DNA of 53,646 nt from a virus (Duplodnaviria; Caudoviricetes), in IMG/VR virus record IMGVR_UViG_3300046707_000046, positions 1-53,646 of that record; one strand, given 5' to 3'. The notes beneath the pieces are model-generated. The model was given only the letters and a program-made list of their open reading frames with translations. It had not been told where the DNA came from and made no database searches. Made by a program: the position numbers and the translations under genes. This document shows positions 1-53,615 of this stretch, piece after piece (within the stretch, counting starts at the first letter, position 1; each line of letters begins with the position of its first letter).

Positions 1-127
1 AGCGCCAAAGAGGCCATTACATGGCGTATCCGTGGCGGACTGTCAGACGCCGATTGGGGCAAGCTCACGCTTGGAGTGAGCGCGCCGTCAATTTAGACAC
101 TGCCGGTCGGGCTAGGGGAAATCCTAG
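1..127. repeat. 127-bp terminal direct repeat (identical to 53520-53646); circular assembly overlap
   Basis: Exact match of the window start and end; the AAA ATPase ORF runs across the junction. Confidence 0.97.
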
Positions 128-181
128 CCTGGCCGAGTGTGCCTAAATCTAGCTAGGTACCAAGTGATAAGGAGAGAGTAA

Positions 182-1063
182 ATGAGTGACGAGCATCCCT
201 ATGAAGATGTTAAGGTAGCCAAGACGGGAAGCGGCCGTACATGCTACGTATCGACGTTCTACAGCATGGCGGACTTCGGTGAGGCTGCGCTGAGACGTGC
301 CAAGCGGCCGGACAATGGCGAGCTTTGGGATATCGGCCTAGCGTCGGGTAATGACGACTGGGCAGGCAATGAGTCGCTACAGCGCGTCGCAGAAATGGCC
401 ATGACCAACGGCTGGCACGGCCCACTAGATGAAACTATCGAAGTGGCCGAGGATGCCGTTCGGGCGATGGAAGCCGAGCATGAGATAGACACGTTCACTC
501 CCCGCTACGATGTAGCGGGATCGGATGTTGAAGTCGGACTGTACTGTTCTGGCGATCCTGAGCACATGGTTGATTACCCGCTGGTCAAGACAAGCCGGCT
601 AGGTAAGGTGCTAAGCCTTATCTGCTCAACCGACGCTATGGCTGGCGTAGGTTCTGACGAGTTCATGATGCGCGGGCAAGTGCTAACAGCACTAGCTATC
701 GCACTTGACCGTCTCGGCCATGCTACCGAGTTTTGGGTTGATATGGGCGCACGGTTCCAGGGTGGCGAATACCATTCACGCATCCTGGTCAAGGGCACAA
801 TGGATTCATTGGACCCGGGAATGCTGCTCATGGCCTACTGTCATCCCGGCATGCTGCGACGGTTGCAGTTCGGTTCCGAGGATGGTAACCCGGTTAGTAA
901 CTACGTCAGGAACAATCGTGGCCGTGGCAGTTCGGCTAGCGTGTTCCTTAACGGCCTGCCGGACGGTATGATCATCATACCTAACCCGGCATACGGAGAG
1001 AGCAACGCTCATGACGAGTTGGTCAGGTACCTTCGGCTCATGGGGCTAATAAGAGGCGAGTAG
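182..1063 (+). CDS. VWA-like partner of the AAA ATPase
   Basis: Directly downstream of the ATPase on the circle; YDVAG..V.VG.Y.SG.PE.M, RG..L.AL...L...G and AY.HP.MLRRL.F segments are typical of phage MoxR-associated VWA proteins; SD AAGGAG. Confidence 0.7.
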   Translation: MSDEHPYEDVKVAKTGSGRTCYVSTFYSMADFGEAALRRAKRPDNGELWDIGLASGNDDWAGNESLQRVAEMAMTNGWHGPLDETIEVAEDAVRAMEAEHEIDTFTPRYDVAGSDVEVGLYCSGDPEHMVDYPLVKTSRLGKVLSLICSTDAMAGVGSDEFMMRGQVLTALAIALDRLGHATEFWVDMGARFQGGEYHSRILVKGTMDSLDPGMLLMAYCHPGMLRRLQFGSEDGNPVSNYVRNNRGRGSSASVFLNGLPDGMIIIPNPAYGESNAHDELVRYLRLMGLIRGE

Positions 1064-1157
1064 ACAGACAAGCTAGGGTGAGCTACGGATAACCAACCGT
1101 AGCTCGCTCAGCCTGGCTAGTCAGTGACCAGGGGTAAGGATGAGAGAGGATCAAGAG

Positions 1158-1286
1158 ATGCTGAGGATACTTAGGGCATGGTTCCGTCGTGGCCGTCACG
1201 TCGCGCCGCGCAAGCACGCTGAGGTCATCATCAGGCCGTTGCAGCGTGAGCCGTTCAACGGCAATCCCGGCGGTTCGGGATGGTAG
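1158..1286 (+). CDS. Small basic hypothetical protein (42 aa)
   Basis: SD GAGAGGA; MLRILRAWFRRGRH... Confidence 0.55.
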   Translation: MLRILRAWFRRGRHVAPRKHAEVIIRPLQREPFNGNPGGSGW

Positions 1287-1414
1287 TTGACTTGCGAGCT
1301 AGACTCGCGCTGGACATTCTCTGGCAACTAGCCGCTTGGTGCGCCGAAGCGTTTCAGTGGCTGGCGAATTATTGGATGCTGTTCTTGCTATTCGATATAT
1401 TCGTGGCGCACTAG
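1280..1414 (+). CDS. Small hydrophobic (membrane) protein (44 aa)
   Basis: Overlaps the upstream stop; WLANYWMLFLLFDIFVAH. Confidence 0.45.
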   Translation: MVVDLRARLALDILWQLAAWCAEAFQWLANYWMLFLLFDIFVAH

Positions 1415-1505
1415 CTAGCTAGGCCGTCTTGGTCGGTCACGACGTAAAGTCGTGCCCGGTCATGTATGCCTAGACATGATGGCAGCAAGTGAACGGAGAG
1501 AGATT

Positions 1506-1806
1506 ATGAGCGGAATCAATATCGGCCAGCCAATCGCGGGTAACGAGGATTGGGTGGGGTACCCCGGTTATCGCAATCGCTTACGACCGGCCGGGGCTGA
1601 ACACGAAATACGCTACGGTCCTATTCAGGCTCGGCGAGTTCGGCAGTGATCGCTGGCAGATACGGAGCATCACCCTAGACGGCAAGCGGGAGGTTAACCC
1701 GCTGGTTCTCACAACCGCCAGCATAGACGAAACCTTCAACGGCGCTGAGGTCATCACCGGCGAAACCGCAAGGGAGAGCATTGTGGAGTACGTGGACGAC
1801 TTCTAG
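1506..1806 (+). pseudogene. Early gene frameshifted by the 4-bp duplication TGGG-TGGG (1551-1558)
   Basis: SD+ATG frame stops at 1649; the +1 frame is open 1510-1806 with no usable start; removing 4 bp gives a 98-aa ORF. Confidence 0.6.
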
Positions 1807-1898
1807 ACGAGTTGCATCACTTAGGGCGCTTGGCTAGTCCCTAAGTGGTGTTGCTTGCCTAAAGCAAGTGCTGTGAAAAGCGAGAGGGGAAAAACGCA

Positions 1899-2990
1899 AT
1901 GGAGGAATGCCACAATTGCGGAGCGGCGATCTACTGGGAAGATGCCAGGCAATGCCCCGAGTGCGATGCGTGGCACTGCCTTAAGGCTACGTGTGCCATG
2001 TGGCCTTTTGAATGCTGCAAATCGTGTGCTGCTATTGAGCACAAGCCGATTCCCCCGGCACCCGTTGGGGGTGACGGCGAGCCATCGCCTGGTGACTGGC
2101 CTGATGAGCCAGGCGAGTCTAGCGTCGGCAGTGACGATGGTCCGGTTACCACGCTTACGGACATAGAATTTGATGTCAGTGAGCTAGGCGAGACATCCGA
2201 GGATAACGGCTTGATGCCCGCCGGCGAAGGTGGAGCGGCAGGTCTTGATCTTGGAGACAACGCCAGCGGTGAAATGCACTCGGCTACCGGGGACGAAACC
2301 GGGACCGAGAGTGATGATGCCGAAGGTGATGGGGAATCATCATCGTCACAGGATGGCCAGCCGTCCGAAGACAGTCAGCAGGGCGACTCCGAAGACGACT
2401 ATGACGATGATGAGTCATCGTCGGATGATGATGAGTACGCCGCCGACGAGGAAACCGAATATGACGATGACATAGATAAGCTGTTTGACCAGATAGATAA
2501 GCTGTTTGACCAGCTTGAGTCTGACAGCGACGACAGCAGCAACGACGACAGCGAGACAGAGTCGGAAGATGACGATGAATCCGACGATGGCGACAACGAC
2601 GGTAACGATCCCCAGTTTGCCATGTACTACCAGCCTCACCGGATTAAGCTACCGCCTAAGCCCGAACCTAAGGCCGACGAGGATTCATCGATGAGCGATT
2701 CCGAGGTACCGCCAGAGGTACCCCCGTATGGCGAGTTCGATGATGATGACGAGCCAGCCGGGCCAGACCCGGACGTGCCCGTTATGCGTCCATTCAAGGT
2801 TCATGCCTACTTCGACATGGAAGAAGACGGCATGGCAGAATTTCTGGCAGATCAGGGCTTGCCTCCCATGCTGGTCGATTCCATCATAGAAGATGGCAAA
2901 TTCGGCAGGCATGGGGAAGTTACCCTAACCTGTCTCATTGATGCCAAGACGAGAGAGATAGTCGTAATCGACTGTGATTACCTGGATTGA
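1899..2990 (+). CDS. Very acidic protein with N-terminal Cys-rich Zn finger
   Basis: Four CxxC/Cx4C pairs, long D/E/S tract, SD GAGAGGGG; internal 21-bp tandem duplication 2472-2513 (IDKLFDQ x2). Confidence 0.85.
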   Translation: MEECHNCGAAIYWEDARQCPECDAWHCLKATCAMWPFECCKSCAAIEHKPIPPAPVGGDGEPSPGDWPDEPGESSVGSDDGPVTTLTDIEFDVSELGETSEDNGLMPAGEGGAAGLDLGDNASGEMHSATGDETGTESDDAEGDGESSSSQDGQPSEDSQQGDSEDDYDDDESSSDDDEYAADEETEYDDDIDKLFDQIDKLFDQLESDSDDSSNDDSETESEDDDESDDGDNDGNDPQFAMYYQPHRIKLPPKPEPKADEDSSMSDSEVPPEVPPYGEFDDDDEPAGPDPDVPVMRPFKVHAYFDMEEDGMAEFLADQGLPPMLVDSIIEDGKFGRHGEVTLTCLIDAKTREIVVIDCDYLD

Positions 2991-3088
2991 CCCGGTAAGG
3001 TCGGGCTTAGCATGACTAAGCCCGGTCTGGTCTGACCAATCCAACCAATCTGACTGACCAATCCGACCGACAACAAGGGAGAGTTAAC

Positions 3089-3293
3089 GTGGAGATACCC
3101 AAGTGGCTAGACCGGCTCAACCGTCACGTGTGCGGCAGGCAGCAAGATGCCGCAAGACGGCTCTATGCCTGATGAGTTCTGCACTCTGCCCCGCCGCCAC
3201 ATGGCGCAAGCCAGGCAGCATGTGAGCCCAGATTTCAGGTGGCCGCTAGCTCGCCAGGGTGCGATGCGCAACGACCGGTCGCAGACCTGCTAG
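3089..3293 (+). pseudogene. Small Cys/His protein frameshifted by the 4-bp duplication GGCA-GGCA (3134-3141)
   Basis: SD AAGGGAG+GTG frame stops at 3172; removing 4 bp gives 66 aa with a CG...FCTLPRRH...H...W motif. Confidence 0.6.
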
Positions 3294-3389
3294 CCAAGTT
3301 CAGCAGGGCTTGACGCCAGGTTTCGTGTCCGCTACGTTGGGCAGGTACGTACCCAGTCAAGCCAGTCGATCGAGAGAAGGAGCAAGGGC

Positions 3390-3764
3390 ATGACAACCAC
3401 TAAGCCAGCGGCAGACCAGGAAGTGCTGCTGATCGGCCGTGAGGATGACCAGGAGCCAGTCAACAGCGAAGACCAGGGCAGGCCGTTCGGAATGGCACTG
3501 CTGCACGCCGCGCTTGACGGCGACGTGCTCACTCTGTACGACCTGCTCATTGAACAGACCGACGATGACGTGCTCGGCGGCCTGACTCAGGCGATCGTCA
3601 TCCTCAACTCGGCGTGCCACGCGGCTTGCGACCATCGGGGACTGGATCACCGGGAACTGAGCATCAAGGCCGCTCAGCACTACGGAGAGGGCGTGCTGCG
3701 GCTGTTCGTCAAGTTCGCGGCCGAGGCCGAGACTGAGCAGCAGCCGGCACCAGACGAGCTTTAA
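3390..3764 (+). CDS. Hypothetical acidic helical protein
   Basis: SD AAGGAG, GC3-biased codons; resembles the next ORF (G.ALL.A.L.GD...L.D.L). Confidence 0.8.
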   Translation: MTTTKPAADQEVLLIGREDDQEPVNSEDQGRPFGMALLHAALDGDVLTLYDLLIEQTDDDVLGGLTQAIVILNSACHAACDHRGLDHRELSIKAAQHYGEGVLRLFVKFAAEAETEQQPAPDEL

Positions 3765-3841
3765 CCGTCTTGGTTAGACAGGGCCACGTTCCCTGTTTAG
3801 CCAAGCTGGCTAAAGGTTAGCTAGCAGAACGGAGAGAGGCA

Positions 3842-4189
3842 ATGGCAAACGATTGCGGCGGAAACCACGAAGGTCCGTGCGAGACGATCGGTGATGCACT
3901 TCTGCGGGCATGCCTTACCGGAGACAAGCGGCTGCTGTTCGACGTTCTGAGCACCTTCGAGACCGAGGAACTGCCAGCACTAGCGGAAGCCGCCGTGCTG
4001 TTCGCTTCGGGCGTGATGGCCATGATGGACGTTCGATCGGACGGCCCGGTCACGACGGCAATCCGGGCAGGCGCTGACCCGGCACTGGGCGAGCTTATCA
4101 AGTCGCTGGAAGACCTGGCAGGCGACGACCCGGCTATCGCCGGACTGCTCACGCTGCTCGCCGGGAACGATGACCCCGAAGGTTCTTAA
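3842..4189 (+). CDS. Hypothetical acidic protein, probable paralog of 3390-3764
   Basis: GDALLRACLTGDKRLLFDVL vs GMALLHAALDGDVLTLYDLL. Confidence 0.8.
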   Translation: MANDCGGNHEGPCETIGDALLRACLTGDKRLLFDVLSTFETEELPALAEAAVLFASGVMAMMDVRSDGPVTTAIRAGADPALGELIKSLEDLAGDDPAIAGLLTLLAGNDDPEGS

Positions 4190-4263
4190 CCGGCCTGGTC
4201 ATGCTAGGGGCAACTCTAGCCTGGCCAAGTCAGCTAAGAAAACGAAGGGAGAGTCAGGGAAAA

Positions 4264-4455
4264 ATGGAGTTGACCGGGCCTAACCTCAAGTACAAGTACC
4301 GGGCACACAAGCCCCGGTCCCGGTATAAGGCCGACTACATGGGCAACAGCGGCAAGAAGCGGGCAAAGCACGTTCTGCTGCCAATGGTGCCCGGCATCAA
4401 GATCAAGACCATCATCCGTCGCTACGTGACCCTAAAGGGGAAGGGAAAGAAGTAA
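4264..4455 (+). CDS. Small Lys/Arg-rich protein
   Basis: ATG after a purine-rich SD; MELTGPNLKYKYR... Confidence 0.7.
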   Translation: MELTGPNLKYKYRAHKPRSRYKADYMGNSGKKRAKHVLLPMVPGIKIKTIIRRYVTLKGKGKK

Positions 4456-4456
4456 C

Positions 4457-4723
4457 ATGGCAGCACCAAGAGCGCTAGCCAAGAAAAAGGCCAACTCGGA
4501 GCCGAGACTCCGCAAGCCCGACGCCGGGCCTGGTCGCTTCTCTGCCCGTACCCTTACCGATCCGCTTACGGGCATGGGGCTACGCAAGTCCAAGCTACGG
4601 GGCAGGCTGCACAGACTGGCCTGCCGGGTAGCGGCTAAGCCCCCCACCAAGAAGACGGCTGACGGCGATTTCAAGCATTACACGTACGCAACGCCGGGCA
4701 GCCTGAACGTCAGGGCACGCTGA
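4457..4723 (+). CDS. Small basic protein
   Basis: Abuts the upstream stop. Confidence 0.7.
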   Translation: MAAPRALAKKKANSEPRLRKPDAGPGRFSARTLTDPLTGMGLRKSKLRGRLHRLACRVAAKPPTKKTADGDFKHYTYATPGSLNVRAR

Positions 4724-4815
4724 TCTAGCAGACCGCTTGACACTCGTAACTAGCCCCTGTAGGTTACGAGTGTCGGGCAGCCCGCTAGAGCGGGAACCAA
4801 GATAGGAGCACCAAA

Positions 4816-5085
4816 ATGGACAAGACGACCGAGCAGGGAATCACGCCGACGCCGGCTACCAACACCTTCGGCCACGCCTACGGCGACTGGGTGCAGACCG
4901 ACACGGCAGCCGACTCGCTGGATGAGTTTATCGCCGGGGCGCTGGGAATCCCGGCTGAGCACGTCGGCGTCATCGCCCTGGTCATGATCGACGCCGTAGA
5001 CCCCAGCGAGGTCTACATCCTCGGCAACGTTCCGGCCGAAGACATCCCGCTGGTACTCGCTCAGGGGCTGCTCATGACGACCTGA
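4816..5085 (+). CDS. Hypothetical acidic protein
   Basis: SD AGGAG. Confidence 0.8.
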   Translation: MDKTTEQGITPTPATNTFGHAYGDWVQTDTAADSLDEFIAGALGIPAEHVGVIALVMIDAVDPSEVYILGNVPAEDIPLVLAQGLLMTT

Positions 5086-5175
5086 CGGACCTAGTTGGCC
5101 AGGGCCTAGCCTCCCTGGCCTTCTAAGCCCTGCCAGACCGATCAAGAGCAGGTAGCCAAGAGAGAGGGCATCAAG

Positions 5176-5592
5176 ATGCCAGAGAACAACGAGCTTGCCG
5201 GCAAGATCAGGGAGTACACCACCCGTGCGATGGCCACCCCTGGCCAGATCGTGGAGGAAAACTCCCTGCCGATCGCCGACGTGCTGCCGTCAGCGGCGAT
5301 GCTGCTCGGCCAGGAGCCGGATGAGCTTGATGGCTTCCTGATCATCGGCTTCCGCAAGGACGGGTCAACCCTGATGGGCGGGAACGTGGACCCGATCGGG
5401 ACCGCCGCGCTGCTGATCGAACTGGGACTTTCGATGGACCCGGAGCTTATGAGCCGGGTGCAGGGAGATGTCATGAAGTCCCTGTTCGGCAGCATGCTGG
5501 GCGACCTTGGCCCGTGTGACGACCCGACGTGTTCCGTCTGCCACGCGGACACCGCAGACGATCAGGGCGAGACGGTCACCCCGGCCAGCTAG
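5176..5592 (+). CDS. Hypothetical acidic protein with C-terminal CDDPTCSVCH motif
   Basis: SD GAGAGGG; GC3 bias. Confidence 0.8.
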   Translation: MPENNELAGKIREYTTRAMATPGQIVEENSLPIADVLPSAAMLLGQEPDELDGFLIIGFRKDGSTLMGGNVDPIGTAALLIELGLSMDPELMSRVQGDVMKSLFGSMLGDLGPCDDPTCSVCHADTADDQGETVTPAS

Positions 5593-5683
5593 ACCGGCCA
5601 GGTGGGCTAAGGGCTTAAGATCGGTCCTTAGCTCGCCTAGCCTGGCTAGACCAGGAAGGGTAAAAGGGAGAGGCAGACAGGCA

Positions 5684-6361
5684 ATGGAACCCATTCAATT
5701 TGAGGCTTGGCAGAAAATCGGCCGCTACCGGCGCAACTCGGTGGTATCCGAGAAGATCGACGGCATGAACGCCGCTGTTGGTGTCGTGGAGATCGAGCGC
5801 AGCCCCAACGGGGCGCTGCCGTTCGGCTGGGATCGCCAGCCTGCTACCCTGATCGTGACGGGGAACGGTGCGGAGACCCGCACCTTCCTGGTCTACGCTC
5901 AGTCTCGCACCAGGATCATCACCCCCGAGGCCGACAACTTCGGCTTTGCCAGGTGGGCCTACGAGAATGCGGAGACCCTGGCCGCTGACCTCGGGCCGGG
6001 CCTGCACTTCGGGGAATGGTGGGGACACGGCATCCAGCGGGGTTACGGCCAGACCGCTAAGCGGCTTAGCCTGTTCAACACGAGCAGGTGGGCCGGCAAC
6101 GAGTTCGTCACTCCGAACCTGGGCGTTGTCCCGGTCATCGGGCACGGCGCACTCTGTGACGAGCTTGTGGAAGGCAGTATCGGCCTGCTTCGCAAGCACG
6201 GATCGGTGGCCGCACCGGGGTTCATGAACCCGGAGGGCATCGTCATCTTCCACCTTGCGACGCACCACTGTTACAAGGTCACCATTGCCGGCGACGATTC
6301 GCCCAAGTCGCTCGGCCAGCACGCGGATAAGCCCAAGTTCCGCCTCGTGGACAGTGCCTAG
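5684..6361 (+). CDS. RNA ligase (Rnl2-like nucleotidyltransferase, phage type)
   Basis: Motif I EKIDG.N, QSR.R.ITP..DN.GFA.W, HFGEWWG.GIQR.Y, PEGIV. Confidence 0.85.
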   Translation: MEPIQFEAWQKIGRYRRNSVVSEKIDGMNAAVGVVEIERSPNGALPFGWDRQPATLIVTGNGAETRTFLVYAQSRTRIITPEADNFGFARWAYENAETLAADLGPGLHFGEWWGHGIQRGYGQTAKRLSLFNTSRWAGNEFVTPNLGVVPVIGHGALCDELVEGSIGLLRKHGSVAAPGFMNPEGIVIFHLATHHCYKVTIAGDDSPKSLGQHADKPKFRLVDSA

Positions 6362-6548
6362 TCTCGGCGGTAACGTCCGCTTCCCGATCACCCGGTATGT
6401 AGTCGAAAGCCGGGACGGGGACACGGGCGAGCCCTGCGAGACCTACGATGAGGCCCGTACGGTGGCATCCGACGAGGGCGGCCGGGTGCTGGGACTGGTC
6501 TACATCTTCAGTCACACGGAAGTAGTTGACGACTTCACCCGTCACTAG
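6354..6548 (+). CDS. Hypothetical protein
   Basis: GTG overlapping the ligase stop. Confidence 0.6.
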   Translation: MPSLGGNVRFPITRYVVESRDGDTGEPCETYDEARTVASDEGGRVLGLVYIFSHTEVVDDFTRH

Positions 6549-6641
6549 GTAGGATGATTCTCCTGGGAGTCAGCTTAGTCCCCAGGAGAGTCACCCCAGC
6601 TAGAAGGGGTAAAATCGAACAAAAAACTACAGGGAGTAATC

Positions 6642-6782
6642 ATGGAAAGAACGCACGCGGAGCTTGATGCCGAGCTAGTGACACGTCGTGTCAGCCGGGA
6701 GTGCGACACCGGTCAGTCACATAGGACCGGGCGAGGGTTGGACTGCGAGAACACGATGTGCCAGTGCTGGTGTCACGAGTAG
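6642..6782 (+). CDS. Small Zn-binding protein (C...H...CENTMCQCWCH)
   Basis: SD AGGGAG; 46 aa. Confidence 0.65.
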   Translation: MERTHAELDAELVTRRVSRECDTGQSHRTGRGLDCENTMCQCWCHE

Positions 6783-6793
6783 GGGTCAAAACG

Positions 6794-6892
6794 ATGCCTA
6801 GTTGGTGGGTGTGCTTAAGATGCGGACACAGGAACAAGCACAGCATGGAGGTCTGCACGAACTGTGGTCAGCCCCCGAATGCAGGTGCATAG
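6794..6892 (+). CDS. 32-aa RanBP2-type zinc-finger microprotein
   Basis: MPSWWVCLRCGHRNKHSMEVCTNCGQPPNAGA fits W-x-C-x2-C-x3-N-x6-C-x2-C; SD-like AGGGG. Confidence 0.65.
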   Translation: MPSWWVCLRCGHRNKHSMEVCTNCGQPPNAGA

Positions 6893-7089
6893 GACAGGAC
6901 GGACGACCGAAGGTGCGATACTACAGTCGGGAAGACGCCAGGATGGCCCGTAAGGCGATGAGAGGGCGGGGGGCATACCCAGGTCACCCCCTGAGAGCCT
7001 ACCGCTGCCCTGGCCATCCTGGGCTGTTCCACATAACATCCAACACAACCGATTCGGTTACCTGGTACAGAGAGAGAGGGTTGTCATGA
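6820..7089 (+). CDS. Small Zn-finger-like protein (KVRY.S...A...LRAYRCP....FHITS); start uncertain
   Basis: Motif common in actinophage small proteins. Confidence 0.6.
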   Translation: MRTQEQAQHGGLHELWSAPECRCIGQDGRPKVRYYSREDARMARKAMRGRGAYPGHPLRAYRCPGHPGLFHITSNTTDSVTWYRERGLS

Positions 7090-7346
7090 CCGCTGAGTAC
7101 GTATACCGCGTTACCTCGGAGCCCCCGCCAGGGGGAACCGCGCATCGCACTCGAAGGCTTAAGCGGACGCTTAAGACCCGGAACGCCATCGTCCAGATTC
7201 TGGCGGCCAATGAGAAGTACGGCCCGGAGTCAGCTACTAGCTGGCGACGGCCCCGGCTTGATCGCCGGGAGGTTATCACCATCGAGCGGGCACTAGTTAC
7301 CGGGTGGGAAGTAATCGACCCGAGCCAGCTTAAGGAGAGGCCATGA
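7086..7346 (+). CDS. Hypothetical protein
   Basis: ATGA coupling, SD GAGAGGG. Confidence 0.7.
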   Translation: MTAEYVYRVTSEPPPGGTAHRTRRLKRTLKTRNAIVQILAANEKYGPESATSWRRPRLDRREVITIERALVTGWEVIDPSQLKERP

Positions 7347-7828
7347 AGTACACCGAGATAGCGCCGGACTACTTCGACATGGAGCCTAAGCTCCCTGCCC
7401 TTAGGCTAAGGGCGATCCTGCGGCCCTACCGGACTATCCGGTCGCTACAGCGGGCCAACTGCAATCAGGTCAGGATGCTGGATGACCAGAGGCGCACCGT
7501 TGCGGGTTACCGTCGCAACTTCGACACGGCGGTCAAGACAATGCGAGACTCCGAGCTAAGGGTATCCGAGCTTGGGGCTGAGCTACAGGCAGAACGCCAG
7601 GCAACCGAAGACCTGGCCGCGCACGCGGCCGGGATGCGGGAGCAAATCTGCAACCAGAAGGCCATCATCAAGCTACTGCACGCTAACGACGGGGAGGGCT
7701 ATTCGGCCGGTCTTCATCAGGGCCACCATGACGCCATGAACGACATGCTCGGCCCTTGTCCCGAGTGCGGATCATCAGCCCCGTTGTGGCCACACGACGG
7801 GGATTGCCCAAATAGCAGGAGAGGCTAG
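7343..7828 (+). CDS. Coiled-coil protein with C-terminal CPEC...H..DC
   Basis: SD AAGGAG; heptad-rich middle. Confidence 0.75.
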   Translation: MKYTEIAPDYFDMEPKLPALRLRAILRPYRTIRSLQRANCNQVRMLDDQRRTVAGYRRNFDTAVKTMRDSELRVSELGAELQAERQATEDLAAHAAGMREQICNQKAIIKLLHANDGEGYSAGLHQGHHDAMNDMLGPCPECGSSAPLWPHDGDCPNSRRG

Positions 7829-7831
7829 GCC

Positions 7832-8173
7832 ATGAACCGAAAGATCACGGCAGCAGTAGCTGCTACCGTTCTGCTGATTGCAGGGTGCGGTACGGTTACC
7901 GCCAGCCCTGCCCACGCAACCATCACGAGCAGACCGCCAGCCGTAACGTGCCAGGGATCGGCGGTCACCCAGTACACGGCAACCGGGCACTGGTCGATGC
8001 ACACGTTCCTGCGGCGGCATCACAGCGACGTGTCAACCATGCTCGACTACACCATTCACTGTGCCAGGGGCTGGCCTCCCGGCTTCGCTGCCTACCTGAA
8101 CAAGCAGAACTGGCGGCTGTTCGTGCCCGCCGGCGTGAAGTTCTGGGATATACAGCCGCCGCCATCGTCCTAA
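7832..8173 (+). CDS. Putative lipoprotein, possibly with a degenerate LysM-like domain
   Basis: Signal peptide with lipobox LIAGC. Confidence 0.65.
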   Translation: MNRKITAAVAATVLLIAGCGTVTASPAHATITSRPPAVTCQGSAVTQYTATGHWSMHTFLRRHHSDVSTMLDYTIHCARGWPPGFAAYLNKQNWRLFVPAGVKFWDIQPPPSS

Positions 8174-8263
8174 CAGATTTAGCCGGCCCCGTCTGGTATT
8201 GACGGGGCTGGCCATGTCGGCTAGGATAAAGGCAACCAAGCAAGCGAAAGGGGAGTATGGACG

Positions 8264-21432: not shown

Positions 21433-21497
21433 CTAGAGCACCAGGAGGACCGTGATCCTCTTTGTTTTGCCATCGGGCGGGAATTAGCAGTTACCCT

Positions 21498-21563
21498 ATA
21501 GTAGTTATATAGTAGTAGTTAGTAGTTAGTATAGTAGTTATATAGTAGTAGTTAGTAGTTAGT
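21498..21563. repeat. Two exact 33-bp tandem AT-rich repeats; candidate replication origin
   Basis: ATAGTAGTTATATAGTAGTAGTTAGTAGTTAGT x2, no C on the + strand. Confidence 0.9.
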
Positions 21564-21622
21564 TAGGTGCCCTCCGGGCACCGGGCACACCCTCCCTTTG
21601 GTCGGGCACCGGGCCTGTTCCG

Positions 21623-49493: not shown

Positions 49494-49515
49494 TGCTGTC
49501 CATTCGTCAGGAGGG

Positions 49516-49588
49516 CTCCGGTTGCTGGGCTCGAACCAGCGACCCTCCGCTTAACGGGCGGACGCTCTGCCGACTGAGCTAAACCGGA
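49516..49588 (-). tRNA. tRNA-Asn(GTT), C at position 33
   Basis: Cloverleaf TCCGGTT/AACCGGA, loop CCGTTAA, TTCGAGC, G73. Confidence 0.9.
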
Positions 49589-49646
49589 CTGTTTTGCAAA
49601 GGCTTTCACTAGTCTCAGGATGACACCTACCCTTGCGGAGACCTCG

Positions 49647-49719
49647 CTCCCCCGGGTGGACTCGAACCACCAGTCTCCGGTTCCAGAGACCGGCGGCCTG
49701 CCAATTGGCCTACGGGGGA
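49647..49719 (-). tRNA. tRNA-Gln(CTG)
   Basis: TCCCCCG/CGGGGGA, loop CTCTGGA, TTCGAGT. Confidence 0.92.
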
Positions 49720-49786
49720 AACGATCTTTATGCAGTCTTGCTGGGCCGAGGGTAAAACTGAACCATGCCAGATATCACCCCCGCCG

Positions 49787-49860
49787 TGGAGCCGGCAGGA
49801 CTTGAACCTGCGACCGACTGGTTGCAAACCAGTTGCACTATCCAACTGTGCTACGGCCCC
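49787..49860 (-). tRNA. tRNA-Ala(TGC)
   Basis: GGGGCCG/CGGCTCC with G3:U70, loop TTTGCAA. Confidence 0.95.
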
Positions 49861-49883
49861 ATATGGGTAAGCAAATAAGCAGC

Positions 49884-50062
49884 GGGCGAGGGGATTAATA
49901 GAATAGCACCGGCTGGCCTCGCCGGTGCCTAATCGGGTGCCCCTTCATTTGGTCCTGCCGGACATCAGCCGTCAGGCCCGCCTTAATTGGGGAGGGTGAC
50001 CAGACTTTCACTGGCTTATGCAAGGTCCACGGCCTTGCGCTTCGTTTACTTCCGCCTCGCCC
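49884..50062 (-). ncRNA. Unknown structured RNA between tRNA-fMet and tRNA-Ala
   Basis: Terminal stem GGGCGAGG/CCTCGCCC enclosing hairpins GCAAGG/CCTTGC, GCCAG/CTGGT and GCACCGGC/GCCGGTGC. Confidence 0.55.
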
Positions 50063-50066
50063 TCAG

Positions 50067-50140
50067 TAGCGGTGGTGGGATTTGAACCCACGGCCTACGG
50101 GTTATGAGCCCGCCGAGCTACCGAACTGCTCCACACCGCG
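50067..50140 (-). tRNA. Initiator tRNA-fMet(CAT)
   Basis: C1:U72 mismatch, GGG/CCC anticodon stem, loop CTCATAA. Confidence 0.93.
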
Positions 50141-50171
50141 TCGTTTTCATTCTTCGTAATACCTAACTAAG

Positions 50172-50242
50172 AGCCCGACACCGGACTCGAACCGATATAG
50201 CCAGCTTGGAAGGCTGGCGTCCTGCCATTGAACGAGTCGGGC
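50172..50242 (-). tRNA. tRNA-Gly(TCC)
   Basis: GCCCGAC/GTCGGGC, loop CTTCCAA, U73. Confidence 0.93.
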
Positions 50243-50248
50243 GCAGTC

Positions 50249-50391
50249 GGCTAGCCGGTAGCCCTACACGGCCCCCATGTTAGCGGGGAACCCGCCTTTG
50301 TTATCCCTTAACCGTAGTGGATGCACCCACCAGCGGCTGCCCTGCGTCTCACCCGGAGGGGGTGACGCCTGCCTCGGGTTTCCAGCTAGCC
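50249..50391 (-). ncRNA. Unknown structured RNA upstream of tRNA-Gly
   Basis: 10-bp terminal stem GGCTAGCTGG/CCGGCTAGCC enclosing three hairpins. Confidence 0.5.
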
Positions 50392-51287
50392 TGAGCGGCG
50401 AAGCCGCTGTCAATCAAAGATGCCCTTCGGGCATCCGCCACGGGTAGCGGGTAACCGGGGGAGAACCGGCCTGATCCAGTAACAGCTCAACCCGTGGATA
50501 CTAACCAGGGGTACTACTACTATACGCGAGCCCCTCAAGGGCTCGCTTTACTACTAGTAACTAACTACCCCCACTATATATATAGAGGAAACCTTACCCA
50601 AACGTTTCTCACTTTTTCCATGATTTTTTAGACATAGCCCCTGACCTGGGGTTCTACCTGAAAAAAGTTTTGGGCTCCTGTCCCTATCAAGATCAAAAAC
50701 CAGTGTCAGATGGTCCAGTATAAATTTTGCGGTTGGGTAGCCGGAATTCCCCACCATCCCGGCCGGCAAACGCCGGCAACTGCCCTGGTCACCACCACCC
50801 CCGGCCGATGGCAAGCCCCTGACCATGCCCTTAGCCGGAGGCTAAGAACCCTTAGGTAGTTAGCCTTGCTAACCACTTGGTGGGGGGTAGGGGATGGTTG
50901 CCCGGCCCGTGGGCCGGATGATGGGAGACACCTACCTCCCCACATCCCATGCCAGCACCACGCCAGCCCGAGAGGCAGGCAAGACCAAGCCAGGCCATGC
51001 CCTGAACGGGGCTGAGAAGCCCCTACGGGCGGATACCCCTGGCTACCCCACCCCCGTACCCTAAGAAGCAAGCCAGGGGCTTAGAAGGCATCTGAGAGCT
51101 GCACTGGCACGGGGTATCACGACACGCATGTTTACCAGGGCATACCGGGCACTCGCAGGGGATTCCCTACTTGACCGCAGGTTAACTAGGAGGGGATTAT
51201 CGTTAGCAAAGCTAACGACCTAAGAACTTTCTTACCTAGCCTGACCTGGGCAAACACGGTTAGCCGTAAGTTACTCGCCAGTACAGT

Positions 51288-51316
51288 TTGACAAGGTTCA
51301 GCCTCTACGGCAATGT
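51288..51316 (+). promoter_or_regulatory. Putative early sigma70-type promoter
   Basis: TTGACA-N17-CAATGT upstream of the whole rightward block. Confidence 0.65.
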
Positions 51317-51399
51317 TGTGCATGTTCCACCGTACGACAACAGCAAGACAGGCCAGCTAGGCTAGCTAGCAAGAGCGGCTAGGCGGACTGAATGCCAAT

Positions 51400-51420
51400 C
51401 GTTACTTGTCAACTGAATAG
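51400..51420 (+). promoter_or_regulatory. rrn boxA-like antitermination motif
   Basis: CGTTACTTGTCAACTGAATAG resembles the actinobacterial rrn leader motif (T/C)GTTGTTTGAGAACTCAATAG; ~85 nt after the promoter. Confidence 0.55.
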
Positions 51421-51575
51421 TCATCCCGAGCAAGGTCGGGAAGCATAGGTGAGCTAGCTAACGTTCACATGTGCGAGCGGACGGCGGACGTATCCAATCG
51501 TTGCTAAGTAACTCGTACTCGAAACCGGCTTACACGTGCGAGTGTCCTGAAACGTAACAGTGCGGACCTAAAGAC

Positions 51576-51899
51576 TCTCTCTCACTTCTCACAAGTGACT
51601 GCCAGCCGTAAGACTGGCGGTTGCTTAGGGAGCATGGGAACCGATGGATGCCTAGCGCATGGGTAACGCTGTAAGCCGCTAGGCGCGACCTGGGAAAGCC
51701 ACTACAGCCCGTTAGCGGGTGCTATGAACAGCGTGGATAGGTAACGTCGGAAGGGTAAGCCGGCGTCATCCGGCTACGTGGCTGAAAAGACGTAAACCGG
51801 AACGATTCGTGATCGTTAAGGATACTCACCAAATTGCCAGTAGCAAACCTGTCTGTCCCATGCTTCCTAAGTGGTCATTCACCGTGAGGAATAGGGAGA
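51576..51899 (+). ncRNA. Large structured leader RNA of unknown family
   Basis: 16-bp closing stem 51624-51639/51856-51871, several internal hairpins and long-range pairings, no credible ORF. Confidence 0.65.
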
Positions 51900-51907
51900 A
51901 ACAACGC

Positions 51908-52126
51908 ATGATGTATTTCGTTATAACGTTTAAGAACAATGGCTACGGCTCACAGAAAACAGTCATGCGGCAGACAAGGCATGAGAGCAACGTCTTTCGC
52001 AACACTGTTGAGGTGCTTACCTCCGAAGGATTCAAGGCGGTTGATACTCTGCCTGATTTCGACTGCCAGCCGCTCAGCGTGCCGACCATGACTCAGCTAT
52101 CAGCACTCGGAGTACGGTTCGCATGA
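51908..52126 (+). CDS. Hypothetical first early protein
   Basis: SD AGGGAG, then ATG; open frame of 72 aa. Confidence 0.65.
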   Translation: MMYFVITFKNNGYGSQKTVMRQTRHESNVFRNTVEVLTSEGFKAVDTLPDFDCQPLSVPTMTQLSALGVRFA

Positions 52127-52263
52127 TCGGTCACCTGATAACCGGCGGATGCCTGCCGGTGATCATGCAATACGCTCACTGTGCAATCCGTCACTGCCTG
52201 CCGCATAGCGGCGGCCGGAACTACTGGGTTGCCTATCTGATCTACGTAGGGCACATTCGCTAG
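52123..52263 (+). CDS. Small hypothetical protein (46 aa)
   Basis: ATGA overlap with the upstream stop. Confidence 0.45.
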   Translation: MIGHLITGGCLPVIMQYAHCAIRHCLPHSGGRNYWVAYLIYVGHIR

Positions 52264-52394
52264 CGCGTTGCGGGAGACAGGTCGTCAGTCAGTCAGATAC
52301 CTGTCTGCCGTTGCTTGCTAGGGTAACGGCAAGTGCTAAGTGTCCGGGTAAGCAAAACCGGACAAATCCTGTGAGAGGGAGAGGGAACGGGCAA

Positions 52395-53615
52395 ATGTCA
52401 GAAATACTGATCAAGCATAACAGTAGGACTACACGCCAGCCGTGCAAGCGTTGCAAGACGTTTGGGCAGGATGGACTTTACTGGGCACATGACCAGTCAC
52501 GCCCTGACGACACGTGCAAGGAATGCACGGATCGGGAGGGTTACACGGTCAATGGTGCTTTTGTCCTGACTGAGAAGGCAACGGGCAAGCGGCACACTTG
52601 CTTGCCCAAGCCTGGCACCAACCCAAGCGAGCCGATCTACGAACCGGTGACAACGCCGGCAGGCAACGCGGATGCTGCAACCAAGCTGGCTGAACTACTG
52701 GCCAGCCTGGCACCAACCGTAGACATGACCGCAATCATTGCTCAGGTTGACTCAGTGGTGAATGCGCGCATGACAGAGGTAGTAACAGCTATCGATGCCA
52801 AGTTCGCTCCACTGACAATCGAGATCAAGCAACATGACAAGCAGTCGGTTACGATCACCGGCGCTCACAAGATGCTGCCGAAGGTTCTGGCAGTTCTGAA
52901 CGCGCCGGGTATCCGTAAGCATGTCATGCTGGTAGGTCCGGCTGGCAGTGGCAAGTCAACCCTTGCGCAACACGTCTCAGAAGCGTTGCAGGTCACGCTG
53001 TATGAGATTGCGCTTGGGCCGACTATGGCCGAGTCACGGGTGATCGGCTATAAGGATGCCAACGGTAACACGGTGGCAACCTTTGTCCGTGAATGGGCCG
53101 AGAATGGCGGCATCTTGCACCTTGACGAGTTTGATGCCGGTAATCCGGGTGTCCTGACAGTGTTCAACTCGCTGTTGTCCAACGGGCACTTTGGCTTCCC
53201 GGACAAGATGATCAAGCTGCACCCGGATTGCTACGTGATAGCTTCACTCAACACGTACGGCCGGGGAGCCGACCGGACCTATAAGGGCAGGCAGGCTCTA
53301 GATGAGGCTACCCTTAACCGATTCGTCAAGATTCCGATCTACTATGATGATGCGGTTGAGGAATCGCTTTGCCTGGCAACGGGCATGAGCCAGTCAAAGG
53401 TTACCGCTGTGCTGACCTACGTACGTCAGCTTAGGGCTAAGGCGGAAGCCGACCGGCTGCCGGTGATCATGGGAGTTCGGGAGTCCGAGGGTCTGTGCTC
53501 ACTGGTCATGGCCGGACTAAGCGCCAAAGAGGCCATTACATGGCGTATCCGTGGCGGACTGTCAGACGCCGATTGGGGCAAGCTCACGCTTGGAGTGAGC
53601 GCGCCGTCAATTTAG
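52395..53615 (+). CDS. MoxR/CobS-like AAA+ ATPase with N-terminal Cys-rich Zn-binding segment
   Basis: Walker A GPAGSGKS, Walker B LHLDEFD, N..GRGAD..Y.GR.ALD.A..NRF; ATG at 52395 follows the SD-like GAGAGGGAGAGGG. Confidence 0.9.
   Translation: MSEILIKHNSRTTRQPCKRCKTFGQDGLYWAHDQSRPDDTCKECTDREGYTVNGAFVLTEKATGKRHTCLPKPGTNPSEPIYEPVTTPAGNADAATKLAELLASLAPTVDMTAIIAQVDSVVNARMTEVVTAIDAKFAPLTIEIKQHDKQSVTITGAHKMLPKVLAVLNAPGIRKHVMLVGPAGSGKSTLAQHVSEALQVTLYEIALGPTMAESRVIGYKDANGNTVATFVREWAENGGILHLDEFDAGNPGVLTVFNSLLSNGHFGFPDKMIKLHPDCYVIASLNTYGRGADRTYKGRQALDEATLNRFVKIPIYYDDAVEESLCLATGMSQSKVTAVLTYVRQLRAKAEADRLPVIMGVRESEGLCSLVMAGLSAKEAITWRIRGGLSDADWGKLTLGVSAPSI

Follow-up and report, generated by a model that had tools for sequence, protein, structure and literature searches.

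A long-range stem upstream of the first rightward gene of an uncultured soil phage as a possible cis-acting leader stalk

Introduction

RNase III sites in phage early RNA include the intercistronic sites of the T7 early region and the site in the lambda N leader, and these sites are local hairpins. The locus described here resembles them in that long double-stranded RNA would form within the first early cistron or immediately 5' of it, in that a series of hairpins punctuates the early operon, and in that the stalk adjoins or includes a ribosome-binding site. It differs in that its arms lie 216 nt apart, whereas the known sites are local. A second parallel comes from rRNA operons, in which the sequences bordering 16S and 23S rRNA pair into stalks that RNase III cuts. 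More generally, a closing stalk joins the 5' and 3' ends of excised stable RNAs such as rRNA and tRNA precursors. The flanks at the present locus likewise pair over a long range around a potentially releasable segment, but the 216 nt that they enclose belong to no known family and have no fold signal of their own.

Two published accounts describe GOLLD and ROOL as large, ornate RNAs that often occur in phages beside tRNAs (10.1101/2024.12.08.627333; PMC5737381). The present element is similar in that it lies in a phage intergenic region without an ORF that borders a five-tRNA array. It differs from GOLLD and ROOL in giving no covariance-model match at E <= 10, in having an interior that is not detectably structured, and in lying on the strand opposite to the tRNAs, 1.3 kb away. 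It is also much smaller than either RNA. At the DNA level, invertons and MITEs are short segments between inverted repeats, an arrangement shared here by segments of 248 and 374 bp with inverted repeats of 16 and 23 nt, respectively, and common terminal hexamers. Unlike invertons, these segments are found in a genome with no recombinase gene, and a second orientation was not seen in the contigs of four sequencing runs. Unlike MITEs, they are present in a single copy in the genome and have no clear target-site duplication.

A first-pass annotation of the DNA had proposed that 51576-51899 forms a large, probably pseudoknotted RNA. That observation is partly confirmed: the closing stem and the pairing over a Shine-Dalgarno (SD) sequence hold, and the ornate interior does not. 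We tentatively suggest that the element may instead be a cis-acting leader stalk, serving as an RNase III-type processing site, as an occluder of the ribosome-binding site of the 72-aa ORF downstream, or as both; of the readings considered here this is the likeliest, although no more than a possible one. The leader would belong to the rightward, presumably early, operon and would be made as one plus-strand RNA. Its core would be a long-range stem of 16-21 bp (51619-39/51856-76), flanked by two 7-bp outer helices that would join a pyrimidine tract to the SD region of the first gene, with a small hairpin between. The stalk, at ~30-35 bp, would loop out 216 nt without demonstrable structure of their own. 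We infer that cleavage or unwinding of this single transcript would detach the first cistron from its leader and expose the SD, with a regulatory effect. The element would then be of the same kind as the ~13 hairpins among the downstream early genes, but with a large loop.

Genome and setting of the element

The window (the whole stretch of DNA analysed, 53,646 nt) is an entire IMG/VR record and represents a complete, circularly assembled soil phage genome of ~53.5 kb, with a 127-nt terminal overlap. The leftward genes encode structural and packaging proteins, among which the portal and the large terminase were confirmed. This set is followed by an NlpC/P60 gene, for whose product the sole named relative among the 120 matches listed comes from a Streptosporangiaceae bacterium, and then by five tRNAs on the minus strand (49514-50242), located by an Rfam scan of the whole window. 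The rightward set starts with the 72-aa ORF (51908-52126, plus strand), continues with an AAA_5/CobS-like ATPase (52395-53615, plus strand), which is the second rightward gene named, and runs onward across the record junction. Between the two sets lie 1665 nt without a convincing ORF (50243-51907), or 3% of the genome. The divergent promoters must be within this region. The element occupies the right end of the region.

No ORF of at least 40 aa was found inside the element in an ORF search, and no minus-strand gene lies to its right. The 72-aa ORF downstream looks like a real gene, on the evidence of its SD, AGGGAGA, and of strain substitutions at 51931, 51937 and 51961 that all fall on third codon positions (3/3 by our own arithmetic). 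The earlier description of a non-coding stretch directly upstream of a real plus-strand gene is thus borne out. The ORF has no match in Pfam or PHROG.

Resolvase (PF00239) and tyrosine recombinase (PF00589) domains were absent from all six frames of the complete genome, in a search that matched them in 12 of 14 and 14 of 14 control genomes, respectively. With no recombinase domain of the tyrosine or serine type, a temperate lifestyle is improbable for this phage. One terminase relative, L083, is classed as a provirus.

The closing stem

All 20 strings quoted in the first-pass annotation are present where it placed them, save GTGAGGA, which starts at 51884. The 16-bp stem that it reported (51624-39/51856-71) is present and consists of 15 Watson-Crick pairs and one G.U pair on the plus strand. 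Four basal G.U pairs and one G-C pair extend it to 21 uninterrupted pairs, with a 5' arm at 51619-51639 and a 3' arm at 51856-51876 in a helix search. The claim of many G:U pairs, which had been read as a sign of selection on the RNA, is not supported: the stem has five, four of which make up the weak basal run. Taking about two turns of double-stranded RNA (~20 bp or more) as the length criterion for an RNase III stalk, the 21 uninterrupted pairs, five of them G.U (four basal), fall within that range, and the outer helices add 14 bp.

Folding predictions agree on this helix. The 16-bp core has a mean predicted pair probability of 0.91-0.97 in eight of eight transcript contexts, whatever the 5' end, and the stem is kept in both the MFE and the centroid folds of a 1341-nt transcript, in support of a cis-acting stalk. 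The closing duplex is also more stable on the plus strand (-33.2 kcal/mol) than on the minus strand (-25.5 kcal/mol), where the uninterrupted pairing falls from 21 to 9 plus 6.

Whether such a helix is exceptional depends on the comparison made. With helices scored at 3 for GC, 2 for AU and 1 for GU pairs, the score of the stem, 46, is the highest of any long-range helix of the genome on both strands, which favours the stalk. When the 1665-nt intergenic region was dinucleotide-shuffled 300 times, a score of 46 was never reached and a score of 39 was reached five times. Counting against the stalk, shuffling of the whole genome, with one strand examined each time, gave 46 or more in five of 120 cases. 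The stem thus stands out clearly from its region but only marginally from the genome. When Watson-Crick pairs alone are counted, it ranks second among long-range repeats genome-wide, with a score that is reached by three of 300 region shuffles and by 36 of 80 genome shuffles.

These counts bear on the rival that survives best, namely that the complementarity is accidental or neutral, an inverted repeat that arose by chance or is no longer functional, with nothing acting on it. The genome shuffles lend it weight on both scores, and three results given below point the same way: the interior is at chance level, two to five of 54 control windows have similar fold z-scores, and conservation went undetected beyond strain variants in the collections searched. 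The region shuffles oppose it on both scores. It is also at odds with the fact that the genome's two top-ranking long-range repeats share this intergenic region, which is 3% of the whole, and with the outer helices, which lengthen the stalk. We consider a chance or neutral complementarity doubtful, although a serious contender.

Outer helices and the Shine-Dalgarno sequence

In the MFE fold, a pyrimidine tract (51576-51592, plus strand) supplies the 5' strands of two 7-bp outer helices, 51576-82/51893-99 and 51586-92/51884-90. The 3' strands (51884-51899, plus strand), located as strings and by pair probability, include the SD of the 72-aa ORF, AGGGAGA (51893-99). The predicted pair probability is 0.81-0.98 in six of six contexts, these being the transcript contexts that hold the pyrimidine tract, and the earlier claim that outer pairing can cover this SD stands as a prediction. 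The outer duplexes come to -18.1 kcal/mol on the plus strand versus -14.9 kcal/mol on the minus strand. A local hairpin (51597-51622, plus strand) separates them from the closing stem; its stem has 9 bp, its loop contains GUAA, and its energy is -14.4 kcal/mol; its z of -3.78 is inflated because its boundaries were chosen at helix ends.

The SD core is predicted to be paired at ~1.0, and the mean over positions -15 to -6 is 0.70. Values of at least 0.70 are also predicted at three of 15 other plus-strand genes; in these models, predicted SD pairing is not distinctive of this leader. In the 1341-nt fold, the SD pairs instead with another tract far upstream, a result that counts against the proposed stalk.

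The enclosed segment and the fold of the whole element

The first-pass annotation had filled the stem with several internal helices and two crossing pairings, and had named folding no more stable than that of dinucleotide shuffles as grounds for giving up the large pseudoknotted RNA. The enclosed 216 nt (51640-51855, plus strand) fold no better than such shuffles: z is -0.70 on the plus strand, a fold equalled or bettered by 51 of 200 shuffles, and -0.18 on the minus strand. Windows of 150 nt along the element give z from +0.86 to -1.3. Two interior sub-domains cut at predicted helix ends have z of -2.9 and -3.5. In an unbiased best-window control, 82 of 145 shuffled interiors had a 120-nt window as good as the best real one, and 73 of 150 did so at 75 nt; the sub-domain values are thus an effect of picking boundaries, since shuffles do equally well. 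Given the interior z and this control, the internal helices and both crossing pairings are at chance level. About 1-6 complementarities of 6-7 bp are expected by chance in 216 nt (our own arithmetic). Moreover, the proposed crossing pairing 51666-72/51728-34 appears in the MFE fold as a nested helix that competes with CCTAGCG/CGCTAGG.

The element as a whole does fold more stably than its shuffles, with z of -3.88 on the plus strand and -2.86 on the minus strand for a 335-nt version and of -3.14 and -3.22, respectively, for a 256-nt version. This signal is gone without the stem, which means that it is not carried by the interior. Two features of the whole-element values speak against a cis-acting stalk. 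They are about equal on the minus strand, and they are not rare in this genome: 54 evenly spaced windows of 335 nt elsewhere have a mean z of -1.15, with z <= -3 in five of 54 and z <= -3.9 in two of 54.

A novel large pseudoknotted RNA is thus not supported by any test made here. The main value of the analysis is negative, in that the pseudoknotted picture depends on helices that random sequence of equal composition supplies just as readily; a new RNA class should be proposed again only on the strength of RNA data or covariation.

Searches for known families and homologues

Rfam covers raiA, ROOL, GOLLD, OLE, group I and II introns and Ms1. At the gathering score, cmscan found only the five tRNAs in the whole window, so the element could not be assigned to a known RNA family. 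A search of 50200-52450 with Rfam 15 at E <= 10 gave four weak matches (a partial tRNA, snoZ168, Chloroflexi-1 and IRES_c-myc), none of them within 51576-51899.

Nucleotide searches returned no usable homologue from phage records (blastn 'distant', 51100-52400), from plasmids (blastn 'distant', 50243-51907), from IMG/VR (exact 24-mer) or from species genome contigs (exact 20-mer). Neighbouring proteins were used as anchors for related loci. The AAA ATPase as a single query found no usable homologue in IMG/VR; an 11-sequence AAA alignment found 218 relatives there, of which 80 were kept (<=52% identity in the best segment), and comparison of the intergenic region with these 80 loci by blastn and nhmmer gave nothing at E <= 1. 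The large terminase identified five loci in IMG/VR at 68-75% identity, with nucleotide matches of <=25 nt at E >= 0.31, and a comparable long ORF-free region was absent from the two of these loci examined; in species genome contigs the terminase had no match. In JGI metagenome contigs, the AAA alignment found five loci at 31-48% identity. The best nucleotide match in these JGI loci, of 41 nt (E 0.026), was taken as chance. The 72-aa ORF had no match in IMG/VR, and in a protein collection it matched only two clusters, both from strain-level genomes.

The early region as a whole is without close relatives. The closest complete relative has no counterpart of the AAA ATPase, and in the collections searched no relative exceeds ~40% protein identity apart from one intermediate relative, P0002, whose AAA ATPase is 64% identical. 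Taken together, the searches of phage records, plasmids, IMG/VR, JGI contigs and species genomes, and of loci related through the ATPase, terminase or first rightward ORF, brought up strain variants of the element and no other homologue, which counts against the stalk.

A covariance model was built from the element entered twice, with an RNAalifold structure. Its self-match scored 319.7 bits, and no element besides itself was found in 17 related loci and five related phage records. The next match (23.8 bits, E 1.3e-4) was a 42-nt hairpin in locus L004, from a distant phage with an ATPase 39% identical. This simple hairpin lies upstream of a gene (3457-3498) and has GGGAGCA/TGCTTCC in common with the element, with the G.U at the same position. 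As a candidate homologue it was set aside as chance, since the degenerate motif occurs in just six IMG/VR contigs, at or below a rough chance estimate, and in no other locus examined.

These searches and the folding results bear jointly on the possibility that the element is a stand-alone structured RNA of ~250-320 nt (a decoy, ribozyme or antiterminator) that is released at the closing stem and acts in trans. An end-joining stalk is typical of excised stable RNAs, the stem is very stable in silico, the region is non-coding, and it borders a tRNA array, a setting known for large phage RNAs. Against it, the stability of the interior is not beyond chance, Rfam has no match within the element at E <= 10, the covariance model recovers only itself among the 17 loci and five phage records, and the tRNAs are on the other strand. 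A released, trans-acting RNA is thus an unlikely explanation.

A neighbouring long-range repeat

Another long-range inverted repeat (50851-51224) occurs in the intergenic region, with arms of 23 nt at 50851-73 and 51202-24, two mismatches and 328 nt enclosed. Counting Watson-Crick pairs, it is the top long-range repeat of the genome, reached by none of 300 region shuffles and none of 80 genome shuffles. The minus strand forms the stronger duplex (-37.5 kcal/mol, versus -30.8 kcal/mol for the plus strand), and one of the repeat's mismatches pairs on neither strand. It is unlikely that the two best Watson-Crick repeats lie within 3% of the genome by accident. Their opposite strand preferences would fit two outward-facing leaders, a pattern that rests on one wobble pair in each.

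An explanation at the level of DNA would treat both repeats alike: the repeat-flanked segments of 374 and 248 bp, each starting with CTTAGG and ending with CCTAAG, would act as promoter cassettes that can invert, be insertions of the MITE type, or bind proteins in an origin or packaging region. The neighbouring repeat speaks for this explanation, in that it is significant on Watson-Crick pairs alone (the 0/80 genome shuffles above), contains a mismatch that neither RNA strand could pair, and has an outward-pointing promoter-like site (51171-51200) just within its right arm; the terminal hexamers common to both repeats also fit. The closing stem suits it less, because the mismatch in 51624-39/51856-71 is a G.U pair on the plus strand. 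Inversion would call for a recombinase, and neither PF00239 nor PF00589 occurs in the six frames; no strand-switch joint was found in the contigs of four runs, which weighs little, as contigs drop rare forms. Insertion would leave copies or duplicated target sites, and the element is single-copy in the genome and absent from the 80 AAA, five terminase and five metagenome loci, with a target-site duplication of <=2 bp (the flanks share TG alone). A DNA-level role is therefore quite improbable. As a genome-wide motif, CTTAGG/CCTAAG was rejected at just 15 and 14 copies. A duplication relating the element to 52061-52307, suggested by three short direct repeats, was also rejected, with an alignment score of 29 compared with a mean of 24 for shuffles (sd 3.6, max 33).

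A bolder reading would make the 1.67-kb divergent control region a pair of stalk-closed RNA modules, the minus-favoured 50851-51224 facing the tRNAs and the plus-favoured 51619-51876 facing the early genes, each excised at its stalk to yield a stable phage RNA that would belong to an undescribed family and act in trans as infection begins. We think it improbable that the region works in this way.

A minus-strand role, as part of a leftward transcript into the tRNA array, is very improbable: the similar minus-strand z-scores (-3.22 for 256 nt, -2.86 for 335 nt), the greater stability of the neighbouring repeat on that strand and a weak minus-strand promoter-like site (51846-51819) are outweighed by the loss of 7.7 kcal/mol from the closing duplex as its G.U becomes an A-C mismatch, by the fall in uninterrupted pairs from 21 to 9 plus 6, by the lack of the right arm in a leftward transcript from 51846, and by the absence of any minus-strand gene farther right.

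Hairpins and promoter-like sites

The proposed leader stalk has possible counterparts farther along the rightward genes. Thirteen long hairpins lie between these genes (92-8224 and 52255-52330), with stems of 15-30 pairs that in many cases have CTAG or CTTAG at their base. The plus strand is the more stable in 10 of 13, and the summed energies are -419.6 kcal/mol for the plus strand versus -370.2 kcal/mol for the minus strand, which supports the cis-acting stalk. The covariance model of the element gives weak, stem-only matches to two of these early hairpins, at 1815-1850 (E 0.058) and 105-134 (E 0.32).

Promoter-like sites point both ways. On the plus strand, those scoring 9/12 occur only at 51171-51200 and 51288-51317, both upstream of the element, which favours the stalk. 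In a comparison with shuffles, one promoter-like site was found where 1.1 were expected, which counts against the stalk. A T7-like RNA polymerase was considered for ACTATAG-like repeats and rejected, as a scan of ten large proteins gave no match to an RNA polymerase family.

If the element is a processing or translation-control site, it would be another case of phages shaping their early mRNAs, in this instance in an uncultured soil phage without close relatives. Such a stalk, if real, would be useful for annotation and unsurprising.

Strain variation

At least part of the window's sequence is present in 21 soil or rhizosphere DNA runs, six of which contain at least half of the words sampled; none of the runs listed is recorded as RNA. 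In the contigs of four runs there is no difference across 51362-51930, and strain variants show zero changes inside the element, while the rest of the region is variable, with differences at 50481-50625 (hypervariable and AT-rich), 50745, 50801/2, 51049-55 and 51358/61. This pattern favours the cis-acting stalk. Its strength varies between runs: by our own estimate, the lack of variation has p ~0.04-0.09 for run X3, and run X7 hardly varies anywhere on the right-hand side, even in coding sequence. The invariance of 51362-51930 is therefore to be taken as weak evidence of constraint on the sequence.

Several of the variable sites merit comment in their own right. At 50745, all four runs have C where the window has A; the window letter is thus a minority allele or an assembly error. 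The patch at 50481-50625 is made up of ACTACTA-type repeats and a GC hairpin, with 16-18 differences in the X7 and X10 contigs. It shares a 12-mer with a ~33-nt tandem repeat at 21490-21570 (minus strand), upstream of leftward genes, and the window 50500-50649 has a fold z of -6.2 on the plus strand. The patch may be a promoter or an origin. Within the first rightward gene, contigs from runs X3 and X10 have the C-terminal part of the 72-aa ORF (51991-52102) swapped for 98 other letters, which looks like a small variable cassette. A variant of the ORF on a 53,833-nt contig encodes 68 aa and is 75% identical to the 72-aa product.
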